Notes under the pieces: generated by a model
Seen by the model: only the letters and a program-made list of their open reading frames with translations
Told to the model about the DNA's origin: nothing
The model's database searches: none
Shown: positions 7,129-48,848 of the stretch, in pieces
Position numbering within the stretch: the first letter of the stretch is position 1
Layout: every line of letters starts with the position of its first letter
Origin: a phage
NCBI GenBank assembly: GCA_020857175.1
Contig: GCA_020857175.1_3048.1
Strand: one strand, 5' to 3'
DNA length: 64,000 nucleotides
Made by a program: the position numbers and the translations under genes

Positions 7129-8141
7129 TATGTTCAGATAAGGTCGTTAATCTTACCCCGGAATTATATCCAGCTGCATGTCACCATGCAGATCAGACTA
7201 TATCTCCAACTTGTTAAAGCAAGTTGTCTATCGTTTCGAGTCACTTGACCCTACTCCCCAAAGGGATAGTCGTTAGGCATTTATGTAGAACCAATTCCAT
7301 TTATCAGATTTTACACGATAAGTAACTAATCCAGACGAAATTTTAAAATGTCTAGCTGCATCTGCTGCACAATCAAAAATAACCCCATCACATGAAATCT
7401 TTTTAATATTACTAGGCTTTTTACCTTTCATCTTTTCTGATATTTTAGATTTAGTTATGTCTGAATGCTTATGATTAAAGAATGAATTATTTTCACCTGA
7501 ACGATTTCTGCATTTACTACAAGTATAAGCAGAAGTTTGTATGCGAACACCGCACTTACAAAACTTATGGGTTTCTGGATTCCAACGCCCGTTTTTACTT
7601 CCGGGTTTACTGTAAAGAGCTTTCCGACCATCAGGTCCAAGTTTAAGCATCTTAGCTTTAACAGTTTCAGAACGTTTCTTAATAATTTCTTCTTTTAATG
7701 GATGCGTAGAACATGTATCACCAAACGTTGCATCAGCAATATTGTATCCATTAATTTTAGAATTAAGCTCTTTAATCCAAAAATTTTCTCGTTCAATAAT
7801 CAAATCTTTCTCATATGGAATTTCTTCCAAAATAGAACATTCAAACACATTACCATGTTTGTTAAAAGACCTCTGAAGCTTTATAGAAGAATGGCATCCT
7901 TTTTCTAAATCTTTAAAATGCCTCTTCCATCTCTTTTCAAAATCTTTAGCACTTCCTACATATACTTTATTGTTTAAAGTATTTTTAATCTGATAAATTC
8001 CGCTTTTCATAAATACCTCTTTAAATATAGAAGTATTTATTAAAGGGCAGTCCTACAATTTAGCACGGGATTGTCTACTAGAGAGGTTCCCCGTTTAGAT
8101 AGATTACAAGTATAAGTCACCTTATACTCAGGCCTCAATTA
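7129..8141 (-). ncRNA. td group I self-splicing intron
   Basis: about 1 kb between td exons; in-frame stop immediately after exon 1; 5' and 3' intron segments match recalled T4 td intron sequence (UAAUUGAGGCCUGAGUAUAAGG...). Confidence 0.75.
7273..8010 (-). CDS. I-TevI: intron-encoded GIY-YIG homing endonuclease I-TevI
   Basis: 245 aa inside td intron; GIYQIKN...VYVGSA GIY-YIG motif; Zn-finger CKCGVRIQTSAYTCSKC linker. Confidence 0.85.
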   Translation of the reverse strand: MKSGIYQIKNTLNNKVYVGSAKDFEKRWKRHFKDLEKGCHSSIKLQRSFNKHGNVFECSILEEIPYEKDLIIERENFWIKELNSKINGYNIADATFGDTCSTHPLKEEIIKKRSETVKAKMLKLGPDGRKALYSKPGSKNGRWNPETHKFCKCGVRIQTSAYTCSKCRNRSGENNSFFNHKHSDITKSKISEKMKGKKPSNIKKISCDGVIFDCAADAARHFKISSGLVTYRVKSDKWNWFYINA

Positions 8142-12134: not shown

Positions 12135-12788
12135 TTAATACTTGCAAGATTTCACAGTTTCAATGAAAACATTTTTAGCTTTCTGTGAATCAATATTTAA
12201 AATTTTTCTATAAGCTTTTAACTTTATAGAATAATTGTTCCAAACTAAATTATCAGTCTGTTCATCATGTTTATCGATTATATTTAAAAACGAATCAAGC
12301 AAGATAAACGTCTCAAACGAAATTATGTTCGATTGCAGAAGTTTAAAAATATAACTTGACTGAACCTTTGGATTATATTCAAAGATTTCTTTAAAAGCAG
12401 AAACTTCAACTTTTTTACTAAAATAATAAATGTTGCGAATATCTTCTTCAAACTTAAATTTAATTTGCTTTAAGCGTCCGATATATTCACGATAAAACAC
12501 AAGTGCATCAGCGTCAGAGATGTCACCAATCCAAGCATCTTGGTTAGCAACCAAATTACTTATAAAGATTAAAGCAAGTTCCTTTAATTTATATTTTTCT
12601 GATAACTTCTGGAAAAAATACTTATCCCTTCGCTTTTGATAAGCGGCATCAGACACCCGCATGCACCAATTATACTTAATTACATCATACTTTCCATTCA
12701 TATGTTGTTTTATCATTAAGTATAATTTATAAACTGATTTACCATCAATGTATCTTTCACCACCAGCAGGCATGCGGAGTTTAATCAT
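12135..12788 (-). CDS. 59: helicase loader gp59
   Basis: 217 aa, same length as T4 gp59, position between 32 and 33. Confidence 0.8.
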   Translation of the reverse strand: MIKLRMPAGGERYIDGKSVYKLYLMIKQHMNGKYDVIKYNWCMRVSDAAYQKRRDKYFFQKLSEKYKLKELALIFISNLVANQDAWIGDISDADALVFYREYIGRLKQIKFKFEEDIRNIYYFSKKVEVSAFKEIFEYNPKVQSSYIFKLLQSNIISFETFILLDSFLNIIDKHDEQTDNLVWNNYSIKLKAYRKILNIDSQKAKNVFIETVKSCKY

Positions 12789-13132
12789 AGCAGAAAATCT
12801 AATGTATTAGTTTTTTCACAACGAACAACAGAAGGACGTAAAAGATTTTCGTCAATGGCTTCTGACTGAATTTTTTCAATTATACCCGAAGGAATAAATT
12901 TAGCAAATTGAGTTTCAGGAATAGAGTTTTCTTCTAAGAATGCTGTTGTAGCTTCAAGATAACTCATTCCAAACTCTTCTACCATTTTTTCAATAATAAA
13001 TCCATTTTCTTGACGATCAAGAAGCTTTGCTATTTCATCCTTTTCTTTCTTGATTGAAAGTTCTTTTTCTGAAAGACCGGTCTCATCGACCGGACGAATG
13101 TCATTTAGAGAAAACTGTGTCATAAAGTTCAA
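12785..13132 (-). CDS. 33: late transcription co-activator gp33
   Basis: 115-codon ORF at T4 gene 33 position. Confidence 0.7.
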   Translation of the reverse strand: MNFMTQFSLNDIRPVDETGLSEKELSIKKEKDEIAKLLDRQENGFIIEKMVEEFGMSYLEATTAFLEENSIPETQFAKFIPSGIIEKIQSEAIDENLLRPSVVRCEKTNTLDFLL

Positions 13133-24860: not shown

Positions 24861-25013
24861 TCAATTAGTTGACTTTGTTATAATATCATCAGACGCTTGA
24901 TTTGTAAACTGGTCTGTGTTATTTTCTTCAAAAATTTTTTCTACGAATTCCTTGAACGACTCACGTTCCTGAGCTACATTATGCTCGATTACATTTTCAA
25001 GATTATGACTCAT
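24861..25013 (-). CDS. small acidic protein (50 aa)
   Basis: ATG overlaps stop of upstream ORF (ATGA); hand translation MSHNLENVIEHNVAQERESFKEFVEKIFEENNTDQ...; below track length cutoff. Confidence 0.35.
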   Translation of the reverse strand: MSHNLENVIEHNVAQERESFKEFVEKIFEENNTDQFTNQASDDIITKSTN

Positions 25014-27394: not shown

Positions 27395-27425
27395 AAATAA
27401 AAAAAGGGAGAGCCGAGGCTCTCCC
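27395..27425 (-). terminator. rho-independent terminator
   Basis: GGGAGAGCC-GA-GGCTCTCCC hairpin followed by T-run on minus strand. Confidence 0.55.
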
Positions 27426-27431
27426 TAAAAA

Positions 27432-42683: not shown

Positions 42684-44003
42684 TCACACATAAAACACAT
42701 CATAACGACCACGTGTTACACCAACGTAAAGAAGTTGTTGAGCTAATTCAGCATCTGCATAATGAATACAAGGCGTATAAATGAAAGCACGGTCTACAGA
42801 CATACCCTGAGCTTTATGGAATGTTGATGCAGGAAGTGCTTTCACTTTACTGAACTGTGATTTAGCATCCCAAAAATCACTCCATGGAGCTTTTCCGCCT
42901 TTGTTCCAATTTTTATAAGTTTCTGCCGTTTTACCTAAAAATAGGTTAAACTTATATAGCTCTTCATCAGATGAAATTATTTTAATCTTTTCACGATAAT
43001 ATTCATCATCGCCATAAGTTTCTACTGTTAAATCCCAATGACGAATTAAGTATTCTCCAGGAACACCACGAGCTTTAACAAATGATGATGTATACTCTGC
43101 TTCTATAATACGAACTAATTGTCCGTTATTAAAAATAATTTCTGACACAGGCTTTCCATCAATTTTATATGTTTTAATTAATGGTTCCTGCATTACAATA
43201 ATTTCACCGACAATAAAATCTTTATCAGTTTCAAAAATCTTTTTACGAATAATGCTATTTAACTTGTCAACAGATTTATTCGTAAATGCCATTACGCGAT
43301 TTTCAAACAAATCATCTAGTGATTTGACGATTGAAAAATAATTTACCATAAAATCACGTAAAGCTGCATCACCAGTAAATCCACGTACTCCATGCCCGTC
43401 AACAACTTTATCATAAATCCACTTACCGTTGCGAACATCAGTAGCTACATCAATAATAGGAGCATTACTGCGTTTAACTTCAGTAAGTTCACACTGATAA
43501 AAATCTTTGTGTGTAAAGAATGGACTGATATAAGCAGTATTTTCTCCTGGATCAACAGGTCTAATTTGCTTATTATCACCTATTCCAATTATAGTACACC
43601 AAGGTGGAATAGTTGAAAGCAGAATTTTAAATAGCTTTCTATCATACATTGACACTTCGTCGCAGATTAATACCCTGCATTTAGCTAAATCTGGTACTTC
43701 CTTCTGTTCAAAAAGAACGTTTTCTTCATACGTAACTGGGTTAATTTTAAGAATACTGTGAATAGTACTCGCTTCTTTCCCCGACAGTTTTGAAAGAATC
43801 TTTTTAGCTGCATGTGTAGGAGCTGCCAAAATGATACCAGTTTCGCCTGTTGATATTAAAGCTTCAATGATGAACTTAGTAAGAGTAGTCTTACCAGTAC
43901 CAGCAGGTCCATTAATAGTTACATGATGTTTCTTTTCTTTAATAGCCCTCATAACGATGTTAAAGGCATTTTTCTGGCCTTCGGTCAAATCATCAAATGT
44001 CAT
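42684..44003 (-). CDS. dda: Dda SF1B DNA helicase
   Basis: 439 aa, Walker A INGPAGTGKTTL, same length as T4 Dda. Confidence 0.85.
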   Translation of the reverse strand: MTFDDLTEGQKNAFNIVMRAIKEKKHHVTINGPAGTGKTTLTKFIIEALISTGETGIILAAPTHAAKKILSKLSGKEASTIHSILKINPVTYEENVLFEQKEVPDLAKCRVLICDEVSMYDRKLFKILLSTIPPWCTIIGIGDNKQIRPVDPGENTAYISPFFTHKDFYQCELTEVKRSNAPIIDVATDVRNGKWIYDKVVDGHGVRGFTGDAALRDFMVNYFSIVKSLDDLFENRVMAFTNKSVDKLNSIIRKKIFETDKDFIVGEIIVMQEPLIKTYKIDGKPVSEIIFNNGQLVRIIEAEYTSSFVKARGVPGEYLIRHWDLTVETYGDDEYYREKIKIISSDEELYKFNLFLGKTAETYKNWNKGGKAPWSDFWDAKSQFSKVKALPASTFHKAQGMSVDRAFIYTPCIHYADAELAQQLLYVGVTRGRYDVFYV

Positions 44004-44311
44004 CGTAAATTCCCTGCAATTGGTATACTAACAATACGCCCAGTATCTAAAATTCGCTGATATAATCTTTGTGTGTCTACGTCAGGCTTAACATGTTTAA
44101 CTTCTATTTTATTAAACCAAAACTTGCGTGGAGTTTCAACTAATCTTGGAATTCCCTTACCTAAAGCTAATCGATACTGCTCTTTAAGAGTAGTAAATAC
44201 TTTATCAGCAATATTCCATTCAAAAAATACAGCAGGACGATGTTCATCAAGCGGAACTGGCGCCGTAAATCCGTCTTTGTCTCGGTAAACTATCGCATAT
44301 ACATAAACCAT
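44000..44311 (-). CDS. hypothetical protein (dda.1-like)
   Basis: 103-aa ORF overlapping dda start. Confidence 0.45.
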   Translation of the reverse strand: MVYVYAIVYRDKDGFTAPVPLDEHRPAVFFEWNIADKVFTTLKEQYRLALGKGIPRLVETPRKFWFNKIEVKHVKPDVDTQRLYQRILDTGRIVSIPIAGNLR

Positions 44312-44312
44312 A

Positions 44313-45059
44313 TTATCCTCGGATAAGTTTAAAAATTGAACAATTTAGCGGATATCCTCTTTTCAGTTTAAGTTTATCAATAAAAGACAAGTTTTGATAC
44401 CGCTCTACACCTTGAATAATTTTATCACACATATCATATTGCATTTCTGCCTCTGACAACTTTTTCACAATTTTCCAATCCGAGCCTTTAAGAAGAACGT
44501 TCAATTTAACAACTTCAGCGCCTTCTGCTATGTGAGAACCATCAATACGAGCTTTAAGTGCTATAATCCTTAGCTTAATGTCAGAGGTCTGTTTTGATTT
44601 AGAAAGCTGAGAAATGTGTTCAATTCGGTTTTCACGTTTTTTCTGTATAGCTTTAATTTGATTATAAGTCTTTTTGATTTTAGCCCATTTCTTTTCATCT
44701 AAATTTAGTTTATGAACTTTTTTCGCAGATGAACGACCAATTCGCAAAGCAAATAAATCACGCTTTTCAATCAACTCCTCTAAAGTATAATCAGAACGAA
44801 ATGTATTATACTTTTTCTTTACTGCAATAACATTCCCTTTAATGTATCCAACGTTATTATCAAAACGTTCTAATGATAATTTCTCTCCTTCAATACGATT
44901 ATCAAAAGGTTCTCCTGAATAGGCACAAACTTTTTGTTCTAAAATATTCTTAATATAATTGAAGTCTAAGTTAAAATCTTTAGAACGTCTTTTTGCAGAT
45001 GCCTGAGTATGCTCTAGACGACGTTTAATTTTACGAATTTGGTTATTAGACAGCTTCAT
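44313..45059 (-). CDS. srd: Srd-like protein
   Basis: 248-aa basic ORF at the T4 srd position between dda and modA. Confidence 0.5.
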   Translation of the reverse strand: MKLSNNQIRKIKRRLEHTQASAKRRSKDFNLDFNYIKNILEQKVCAYSGEPFDNRIEGEKLSLERFDNNVGYIKGNVIAVKKKYNTFRSDYTLEELIEKRDLFALRIGRSSAKKVHKLNLDEKKWAKIKKTYNQIKAIQKKRENRIEHISQLSKSKQTSDIKLRIIALKARIDGSHIAEGAEVVKLNVLLKGSDWKIVKKLSEAEMQYDMCDKIIQGVERYQNLSFIDKLKLKRGYPLNCSIFKLIRG

Positions 45060-45089
45060 ATTTTTCTCACATCTTACGGACGGTTAACT

Positions 45090-45125
45090 ACTTATACTAT
45101 AACATTTTTACCTTAACTTGTAAAC
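45090..45125 (-). promoter_or_regulatory. early-type promoter upstream of srd
   Basis: minus-strand GTTTAC at 45120-45125. Confidence 0.4.
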
Positions 45126-45182
45126 AACTTTATGTAAAAATGCTTTAAAACTTTCATGGTATAATGAATCTAAGTCCTTCCA

Positions 45183-45785
45183 TTATAGATTAAATCCTTC
45201 AAAATCAAGAGTATAGATAGTGTATGTTGAATACTTTTTGTACTCATATCTATCTGCAATTCTAAATACACTTCCAGCTGGTATCATTACTTCTTGTTCA
45301 TCTGAAACTAATTCCATATTACGATAACGATGGCTATCCGGAAACTTAAAGTTTGGATTGTATTCTTTACAACGTAGAGCTTTTATAGCATACTCCTGGA
45401 AATTGAATACCATAGGAGCTTTGAATTCAAAAATAACTTGTGTGTTATACTCTAAACCGGAAGCAAAATGTAGAGCTATATTTTTATCATATGAAGCTGA
45501 TACGACTTTATCAAATGTAATAATATCAATTCCTTGATTTAATACTTGCTTAGTCTCAGCTGGAACACCTCTCCAAAGAGGTTTATCGTTTGGTTCCAAA
45601 CGAGATTTGATTATTTCATTTAACCAAGTATGGTCATCTGGTTTATTAGTAATACAATGAATTAAAAGTTCAATTTCAGATAAATTAAACCCTTCAGAAA
45701 GTAATTCTTCACGAATAGAAGCACGCACCGATGCATCCATTGATTTTATTTTAAAATCTTTTAGTTGCATTACTGAGTATTTCAT
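45183..45785 (-). CDS. modA: ADP-ribosyltransferase ModA
   Basis: 200 aa, same as T4 ModA, ART-like fold motifs. Confidence 0.8.
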   Translation of the reverse strand: MKYSVMQLKDFKIKSMDASVRASIREELLSEGFNLSEIELLIHCITNKPDDHTWLNEIIKSRLEPNDKPLWRGVPAETKQVLNQGIDIITFDKVVSASYDKNIALHFASGLEYNTQVIFEFKAPMVFNFQEYAIKALRCKEYNPNFKFPDSHRYRNMELVSDEQEVMIPAGSVFRIADRYEYKKYSTYTIYTLDFEGFNL

Positions 45786-46404
45786 TCAACTACCTCAATA
45801 TCATAAACTTTAAATGTTCCAAATGAATCGTGTAATTTTTCTTTTGAAATAGAAGTTATTCTATACTTTCCAATTGGAATCATCCATTCTTGTTCACGCA
45901 CAATCATCATTAAGTTATCAGTACGCTCTGAATCTAGCCCATCAGTATCTTCATACGTGTACTTAAACTCAGTATTAGGAGAAGAAAGTATAATATCGCT
46001 GATATGGTCAGAATAATTAAAAGCTTTATCAGTTTTTAAGCGAAATATTATTTCAGTGAAATACTCAACATAAGAAAAACCACATGCTGTGTGCAAACTA
46101 GTAGTAAATGAATCTACCCTATTCGTTGAAAACACTTCTCCAACTTGTAAATCTTTAATGAGTTCTTTTGTCGATTTTGATATACCACGATATAACTGAT
46201 AAGGTGATTTAGTTAAATGCTTTTTAACGATTTTATTCAACTGCCGATGAAGAGCTTCATTCTTTTTAGCTTCCATACATTGCCAAAGAATTGACTGCTC
46301 AAAGTCAGTAAATTTTTCACAGACTTTTTATACATATCATATTGAAAATCAACGCTTTCAGCTTTTATAGATAACTGTTCAACATCTGCAAGATTAATAA
46401 TCAT
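45782..46404 (-). pseudogene. modB: ADP-ribosyltransferase ModB interrupted by -1 frameshift
   Basis: N-terminal 27 codons MIINLADVEQLSIKAESVDFQYDMYKK then frame change at T5 run (46325-46329); downstream frame continues for 164 codons; 43+164 = 207 codons if restored. Confidence 0.6.
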
Positions 46405-46471
46405 GATAGCCTCCGTATACTTCAGAAGCTATCATATCATCGTTAGAAAGGAAAGTAAACAACTTTTTGAA

Positions 46472-46654
46472 TTATTTTGCCCAGGGAGCCCAAGGCGGAG
46501 GGTCAAGATGGTATGAAGCTAGTTCTTCTAGAAGAGCATCTGGGGCTTCAATTCCATAATTCTGTAATACTATACGGTACTCTTTCTTATAATCACTAGA
46601 ATCATTCTGGTTATTCGTAGAATGATTATCTTCTAACATCTCAAATAAATCCAT
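46472..46654 (-). CDS. hypothetical protein
   Basis: 60-aa ORF. Confidence 0.35.
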   Translation of the reverse strand: MDLFEMLEDNHSTNNQNDSSDYKKEYRIVLQNYGIEAPDALLEELASYHLDPPPWAPWAK

Positions 46655-46662
46655 ATTAATTC

Positions 46663-47067
46663 CTAGCGATAAAAACCAAATTGACGATTAGTTTCAATAA
46701 TCTTTCTTTCTTCTTCGGACATTCTCCAACGTAGTCCAACATCAAAATGAGCCCAGACCATCTTAACAAATGCATTTATATCTTTAATATCTTCAATAAT
46801 GAATGTTTTACTTTTAGAAGGTTGACTCACTAATTTAACTTTATCATCTTCAAACAGGTCAAAAAGACCATATTCATGAGCTCTTTTATAGCCTTTAATA
46901 GTTAAAGCTTCAGAAGAAGAAAACGGTGAATCTGTATTCTGCAAAATATCTTCAGTATGCTTTATAATTAGAATAACATTTTCTGGATATTTTCTTTCTT
47001 TTATATCTTTAATTAAAAAATCCGGATTTTCTGCTAAAGGAATAATTAATGAGCATTTTTTTACCAA
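46663..47067 (-). CDS. hypothetical protein
   Basis: 134-aa ORF. Confidence 0.4.
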   Translation of the reverse strand: MVKKCSLIIPLAENPDFLIKDIKERKYPENVILIIKHTEDILQNTDSPFSSSEALTIKGYKRAHEYGLFDLFEDDKVKLVSQPSKSKTFIIEDIKDINAFVKMVWAHFDVGLRWRMSEEERKIIETNRQFGFYR

Positions 47068-47126
47068 GAGTATTTACTGATTTACCTTCTTTAGACATGA
47101 ATTCTACTGAATAATGTTTTGCTACT

Positions 47127-47291
47127 TCAATCATGTGATTTCCTTTTGCCTACTAATGGACCATCGGGAATTTTGTTTTCCTGGATATATTTCTCATTTT
47201 CTTCCATCATTTTACTGCCAATTTTAAGAAGCAAATCCAGTGCTTCATTTGCTTTTGCTTTAGCCTCTTCTAACGTTATATCTTTGTTCAT
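47127..47291 (-). CDS. hypothetical small protein (54 aa)
   Basis: codon-by-codon translation [35 protein letters not shown]...; ATGA coupling to upstream ORF. Confidence 0.3.
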
Positions 47292-48507: not shown

Positions 48508-48569
48508 AGTGCTCTCCTCTATAAGATAATTCTATTATACCATACTCATTTTGGAAAGTAAACCATTTA

Positions 48570-48597
48570 AATGAAAAAGGACTCCCGAAGGAGTCCT
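48570..48597 (-). terminator. terminator downstream of soc
   Basis: AGGACTCC-CGAA-GGAGTCCT hairpin followed by T-run on minus strand. Confidence 0.5.
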
Positions 48598-48602
48598 TGA
48601 AT

Positions 48603-48848
48603 TTATTCACCAGTTACTTTCCACAAATCTTCATTTGCAGCAATCCATTCAGTACGTTGATTTTCTTCATATACTGTAGAATATGCTGCTTTTTCTGAAG
48701 GGAATGTCTGATAATGAGCACCAGAAATTTTGTGAACGTCAGAATAAAGAGGGAAAGCTACAGAAATTTCCTTTCCTTCAATTTTCTTATTTCCATCTAA
48801 TTTCTGCTCAAATGTTTTAATATTAACATAACCGCGAGTACTAGCCAT
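48603..48848 (-). CDS. soc: small outer capsid protein Soc
   Basis: 81 aa MASTRGYVNIKTFEQKLDGNKKIEG matches recalled Soc. Confidence 0.8.
   Translation of the reverse strand: MASTRGYVNIKTFEQKLDGNKKIEGKEISVAFPLYSDVHKISGAHYQTFPSEKAAYSTVYEENQRTEWIAANEDLWKVTGE

Follow-up and report, generated by a model that had tools for sequence, protein, structure and literature searches.

The genes modA.3, modA.2, modB, modA and srd lie in this order, as they do in T4, in the window, the 64,000-nt stretch of a mosaic Tequatrovirus (T4-like) genome that was analysed. The best 24-kb matches to the window in the phage collection were approximately 97% identical, and that collection held no record of the window itself. 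On the minus strand, modB is divided between two overlapping open reading frames. ORF1 (46404..46237, 55 aa), taken from the sequence and the ORF list, starts with MIINLADVEQLSIKAESVDFQYDMYKK (MIINLADVEQ…MYKK) and consists of ModB codons 1-27 (46404-46324), a tail of 28 codons unrelated to ModB (46323-46240) and a TGA stop codon (46239-46237). ORF2 (46276..45782, 164 aa) begins at Met44 (MEAKKNEAL…) in the other frame; its start precedes the ORF1 stop by 37 nt and lacks a Shine-Dalgarno sequence. The ModB frame itself is unbroken from residue 28 through residue 207 and the stop codon (46324..45782). The deletion site between the two frames is a run of five A residues (46325..46329, T5 on the plus strand) followed by G at 46324; the zero frame reads U AAA AAG, and the junction on the coding strand is TAT AAA AAG TCT.

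The initial annotation had named this gene modB, placed a change of frame at the T5 run 46325-46329 and predicted that one added A would give a 207-codon ORF joined to MEAKKNEAL…, and all of this was borne out. T4 ModB aligned to the window by tblastn in two pieces that switch frame at the run, residues 1-27 with 100% identity in frame -2 (46404-46324) and residues 27-207 with 94.5% identity in frame -1 (46327-45785). Insertion of one A created a 624-nt ORF of 207 codons, the product of which is identical to ModB of phage ACG-C40 and, without gaps, identical to T4 ModB at 197/207 positions (95%). As judged from these alignments, the split modB is a specific 1-nt deletion relative to approximately 99% of relatives and no chance pattern of ORFs. 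For annotation, the two CDSs are best joined under the label of a single disrupted modB rather than named 'hypothetical protein' and 'RNA polymerase ADP-ribosylase'.

Comparison with relatives, which had been suggested as a check, found the run intact in nearly all of them, as A6G (ACG-C40, G2540 and RB51) or A5GG (T4 and PM123), versus A5G in the window. The single missing base was the sole difference within modB in the alignment with close relatives. Indeed, the window and G2540 had no nucleotide difference over 46580-44937 (~1.6 kb) except the modB deletion, and the window equalled ACG-C40 over ~2.5 kb, indels and one SNP aside. By its sequence, A5G is reachable by the loss of an A from A6G or of a G from A5GG. 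T4 itself reads AAA AAG GTC where the window reads AAA AAG TC, and relative to T4 the base lost is thus G and not A. Since the ModB frame has acquired no further changes, the lesion, if real, would be young.

T4 modB (NP_049636, T4 12507-13130) has the same promoter, leader hairpin, Shine-Dalgarno sequence, gene order and catalytic residues as the window gene, whereas the window frame is interrupted after codon 27. Directly upstream of modB, a consensus scan identified a putative early promoter (46431..46459, minus strand; TTTACT and TATGAT spaced by 17 nt, with TG) that is identical in T4, ACG-C40 and metagenome contigs. The scan assigned srd a promoter-like site of its own. A predicted hairpin in the leader RNA (46402..46436, minus strand) pairs the leader with the Shine-Dalgarno sequence GGAGG (46414-46410) and the AUG (46404-46402), and resembles the arrangements that sequester ribosome-binding sites in T4. 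It has 14 pairs (-20.8 kcal/mol, z = -5.6), none of 200 shuffled sequences folded equally well, and it is conserved in T4. The 5′ arm of the hairpin overlaps the -10 hexamer, so that only read-through transcripts would be translationally masked. Downstream, modA (45183..45785, minus strand, 200 aa) is intact; its ATG overlaps the modB stop codon (ATGA) and its own GAGG lies ~8 nt upstream. The early stop of ORF1 would abolish translational coupling of modA while leaving this Shine-Dalgarno sequence in place, and may exert some polarity on modA.

T4 ModB is a mono-ADP-ribosyltransferase of the R-S-E type that also RNAylates rS1 and rL2. The repaired ModB of the window matched PHROG 832 (RNA polymerase ADP-ribosylase) with E = 6.5e-42, and ORF2 matched it with E = 3.7e-33. 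Precomputed Pfam hits assigned the 164-aa product to PF26816 (Mod_ADP_RT); these hits and PHROGs were used because the model set with which ModB, ModA and the fragments were scanned against Pfam-A, with no match, lacked PF26816. A PDB sequence search for ModB returned no solved relative. In an alignment of 35 homologues, R73, G74, S99 and Y115 were invariant and E171 and E173 nearly so. The catalytic R, S and E-x-E are all present in the window in the downstream frame, past the break (minus strand: R73/G74, 46189-46184; S99, 46111-46109; E171/E173, 45895-45887), and the R73A/G74A substitution abolishes the activity of T4 ModB (PMC10468400). The first conserved element of the alignment, F32..E36.S38.L40..C43, marks the start of many short homologues; ORF1 carries it out of frame and ORF2 lacks it. 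The AlphaFold model (pLDDT 93.2), which matched C3/iota/Certhrax-type ARTs in a fold search, shows three N-terminal helices with confidence (residues 5-14, 18-31 and 34-42), and the break falls inside helix 18-31. Because the break lies in this conserved N-terminal helical region, neither the ORF1 nor the ORF2 product is expected to be an active enzyme. Homology, motif and synteny place the gene in the Mod_ADP_RT family (PF26816), but the single uninterrupted ORF of that family is missing; as encoded, the modB of the window is, from its reading frames, a disrupted allele of the family and no functional member.

Ribosomes initiating at the strong GGAGG/AUG would be predicted to synthesize a 55-aa peptide of 27 native and 28 nonsense residues and to stop at 46237. 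The catalytic part, located downstream in the other frame, would have neither a ribosome-binding site nor the N-terminal helices, and little or no active ModB would be made. The allele is expected from these features to be null or a strong hypomorph. The 164-aa ORF was also considered as an independent truncated enzyme; this is unlikely given the lack of a Shine-Dalgarno sequence, a start upstream of the ORF1 stop and the missing helices. Weak re-initiation might be possible at a TTG (46240-46238) that overlaps the ORF1 stop codon TGA.

The deletion is rare among relatives. An 801-bp query of the modB region matched 503 phage records, and in 502 of these the match covered 80% or more of the query. 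A 76-nt probe centred on the run matched 398 phage records, of which one, Escherichia phage a15 (OQ067373), carried the deletion allele; the other matches listed all span 77 nt. Contigs matching the surrounding sequence were all intact (deletion in 0/6 from JGI metagenomes and 0/3 from IMG/VR), a search of IMG/VR for the exact A5 pattern gave no match, and a gapped pattern recovered intact alleles or nothing from JGI metagenomes, GTDB genomes and IMG/VR. In a collection of 15 billion proteins, the full-length ModB cluster numbered 712 members, and the 55-aa frameshift product was represented by two sequence variants from four contigs. Overall, ~4 data sets had the off allele, versus more than 500 on alleles (genomes or contigs). 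T4 survives catalytic inactivation of ModB, but its burst falls 4-fold and its lysis is delayed by 20 minutes (PMC10468400). The viability and reduced fitness of ModB-inactive T4 would explain why the deletion is tolerated yet rare and short-lived.

The split modB of a15 comprises the CDSs a15_136 (55 aa, WBF82409.1) and a15_135 (164 aa, WBF82408.1). The deletion is the same, both predicted products are identical to those of the window, and a single SNP separates the two phages in the 801 bp around modB. Elsewhere, a15 is ~96-98% identical to the window and is another phage; it lacks the modA.3 insertion of the window described below and has an A-run insertion of its own in asiA.1. Common descent of the allele in the window and a15 was considered and is not demonstrable, as intact phages have the very same 900-bp patch that the two share, and no SNP in it is informative. 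An exact-protein look-up also recovered a Logan assembly of run SRR5368307 (contig_172, 30 kb), which encodes the same 55-aa product and matches the window with 100% identity throughout 6,168 bp, the A5 run among them; a literature search found no publication on this run. The same deletion was present on the RB51/AR1-type modB haplotype in scaffold_260 of ENA ERZ28571564 (L012) and in the Logan contig ERR4622921_4221 (L011), and 28 phage records have this haplotype with an intact run. Occurrence on two haplotypes indicates at least two independent origins, or calls, of the deletion. Pro5 (CCT) in L011 and L012 was examined as a deletion-linked marker and rejected, since it belongs to the normal RB51/AR1 haplotype. 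Two further entries in the public protein collection are modB frameshift products, one of 56 aa (P0053, MYKKKFVKNLL…) whose shift occurs at the same modB run and into the same wrong frame, and one of 96 aa (P0020) shifted at Arg73/Gly74 (codon 74).

The deletion is best read as a true slippage event at a mutational hot spot, the A run of a dispensable gene, with an estimated probability of approximately 0.65. Replication slippage at the run encoding Lys26-Lys27 would have removed one base of modB; we infer that a true mutation in the phage stock, with slippage as its mechanism, is most likely. Streisinger-type slippage at A runs is the classic source of frameshift hot spots in T4 rII. Like those hot spots, the modB deletion alters one base of an A5-6 run, affects a dispensable gene of a T4-type genome and recurs independently; unlike them, it is known from sequence records alone.

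Three readings had been offered at the outset, and they fared differently. An error of assembly was eliminated, since the independent Logan assembly is identical, which excludes an assembler-specific artefact and requires that most SRR5368307 reads carry A5. A pseudogene or hypomorph was favoured by the presence of the allele in a15 and on a second haplotype. The remaining rival is a homopolymer error of base calling or consensus, by which the true modB would be intact with 207 codons and its A run under-called; this is unlikely, though it deserves serious weight. It gains from modA.3, at which the same type of error would have added an extra A. This Mrh-family paralogue (156 aa in T4, a15, ACG-C40 and PM123) has A7 instead of A6 in the window (47056-47062, T7 on the plus strand; minus-strand gene) and is split into ORFs of 41 aa (47134..47009) and 134 aa (47067..46663), both on the minus strand. 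The A7 run was found in 0/474 phage records and was reproduced in the Logan contig of SRR5368307. The window thus has two A-run indels ~730 nt apart, one of which is unique among the 474 records. Other carriers of the modB deletion likewise have extra homopolymer indels, a15 in asiA.1 and L011 as three deletions in 4.3 kb, and error-prone homopolymer calling, which recurs at the same sites, would yield such a pattern. Sporadic errors at one fixed site prone to them could also account for a frequency of ~4 in more than 500, and the perfect preservation of the downstream ModB frame, with no decay, suits an artefact as well as a recent mutation.

Several results argue against such an error. The Logan re-assembly from raw reads agrees with the window, and a false call would have to dominate the reads. 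Frame-breaking indels numbered only two in 64 kb, which contains 72 A/T runs of at least 6 nt, and neither is in an essential gene. Consistent with this, a window-wide screen of ~260 T4/a15 reference ORFs at 85% identity or more found only modB and modA.3 frame-broken, and 60 of the 72 runs did not differ in length from any aligned reference. The ndd.4 and I-TevI regions showed apparent frame splits, which were rejected because the called ORFs ran upstream of the true starts; another at motB.1 was set aside because the region is divergent. The other intergenic run-length differences examined were shared natural polymorphisms or lay in variable terminator regions; for example, the run difference at 48538-48614 had an exact match in 9 records and is a natural polymorphism. 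In addition, L012 carries the modB deletion and no other homopolymer indel in 3.6 kb. Finally, a15 comes from the SNIPR Biome collection (PMC10869271), and the release testing of SNIPR Biome engineered phages uses more than 1000x coverage, SKESA assembly and a BWA check (PMC10869271). Short reads at very high depth very probably underlie the genome of a15 itself, a further point against a miscalled run.

In a15, an A6 to A7 insertion at about 25,850 truncates asiA.1; the counterpart in the window is 24935-24940, and asiA.1 is intact in the window, T4 and PM123. Relative to window positions 42684-46975, L011 has three extra single-base homopolymer deletions, two of them probably in srd, where no gene was called. 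The L011 data are clearly prone to error, and the modB deletion in this contig counts for little as evidence. The pattern among carriers fits either slippage mutations gathering in dispensable early genes of plaque-purified stocks or recurrent miscalls at the same places.

A -1 slip on AAA AAG in the A5 allele gives M-Y-K-K-V-C-E in the exact wild-type frame; slippage of the Lys tRNA from AAG to AAA, followed by GUC, would yield wild-type ModB with the junction peptide VCEKFTDFEQSILWQCMEAK. A TAA directly before the run (GTA TAA AAA GTC) closes the ModB frame, and productive slips are therefore confined to the ~30 codons from Lys26 through the ORF1 stop. In E. coli, A_AAG is a minimal and notably shift-prone -1 site (PMC5009743), and -1 slippage suppresses single-base deletions in test genes with an aggregate efficiency of 1-10% (PMC10861913). 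By analogy with these reports, a -1 slip at U_AAA_AAG or a later codon before the ORF1 stop may carry a few per cent of ribosomes on to full-length ModB, and such low-level leakiness is plausible.

A further account holds that the A5 allele is itself selected, either as a 'savior indel' whose -1 slip lowers the dose of a toxic enzyme or as the off state of a phase-variable A run. The 'savior indel', in which low-level frameshifting compensates for an indel, is a described class, exemplified by the G run of herpesvirus TK (PMC5009743), and in window modB the wild-type protein would be restored by a -1 slip. The recurrence of the deletion on two haplotypes would also agree with selection. Several features weigh against this account. 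U_AAA_AAG matches the slippery heptamer X_XXY_YYZ no further than the A_AAG tetramer, and re-pairing in the P site (AAA to UAA) is poor. A dnaX-type -1 site, A_AAA_AAG, shares AAA AAG in the zero frame, but the window has one A fewer than the heptamer, no stimulators and an arrangement that is not conserved. No GGAGG-like sequence was found upstream of the site, and the predicted hairpin starts inside it instead of 5-9 nt downstream (96-nt fold, z = -2.5). The flanks are the same as in intact phages, and nothing in them has evolved to support frameshifting. A two-frame arrangement was present in 1/398 phage records (a15) and in 0/9 metagenome and IMG/VR contigs; the single ORF is kept in ~99% of relatives. 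Selected attenuation or switching is accordingly improbable, and a mutational hot spot is the simpler account of recurrence. At most, adventitious leakiness would occur at modB; nothing suggests programmed frameshifting.

The suggestion of phase variation in the initial annotation found no support, given a tract of 5-6 nt, short for a contingency locus, and an off allele in 4 data sets versus more than 500 on, with no sign that such alleles persist. A narrower proposal is that the recurrent deletion is a selected hypomorph, in which slippage supplies a few per cent of wild-type ModB and a toxic ADP-ribosyltransferase/RNAylase is tuned down in certain hosts or production strains. We consider this very improbable; if true, it would be the phage counterpart of the 'savior indel' of herpesvirus TK.

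A T4-type modB with a single-base frameshift is already known, as the same allele is in GenBank (a15) and the kind of event is textbook; no new biological principle follows from it. The preferred reading, a true slippage deletion, adds a natural example to the A-run frameshifts that recur in dispensable early genes of T4-like phages. It also bears on a15, the parent of a clinical phage product, which probably makes no ModB or very little; ModB raises the burst size of T4 4-fold (PMC10468400). If reads confirm the deletion, the allele would be a handy natural ModB knock-down for studies of RNAylation.

Further indels relative to T4 were observed at a distance from modB. At 27399-27431, an A7 and an A5 run flank a terminator-like GGGAGAGCC hairpin; both runs exceed their counterparts in T4 and a15 by one base, the difference from PM123 at the A7 run is two, and the 91-nt stretch around these positions had no exact match among phage records. 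A 1-nt indel relative to T4 at ~8048-8049 lies inside the td intron, upstream of the annotated start of the intron ORF I-TevI (7276-8138, minus strand), the protein product of which is 100% identical to that of T4.
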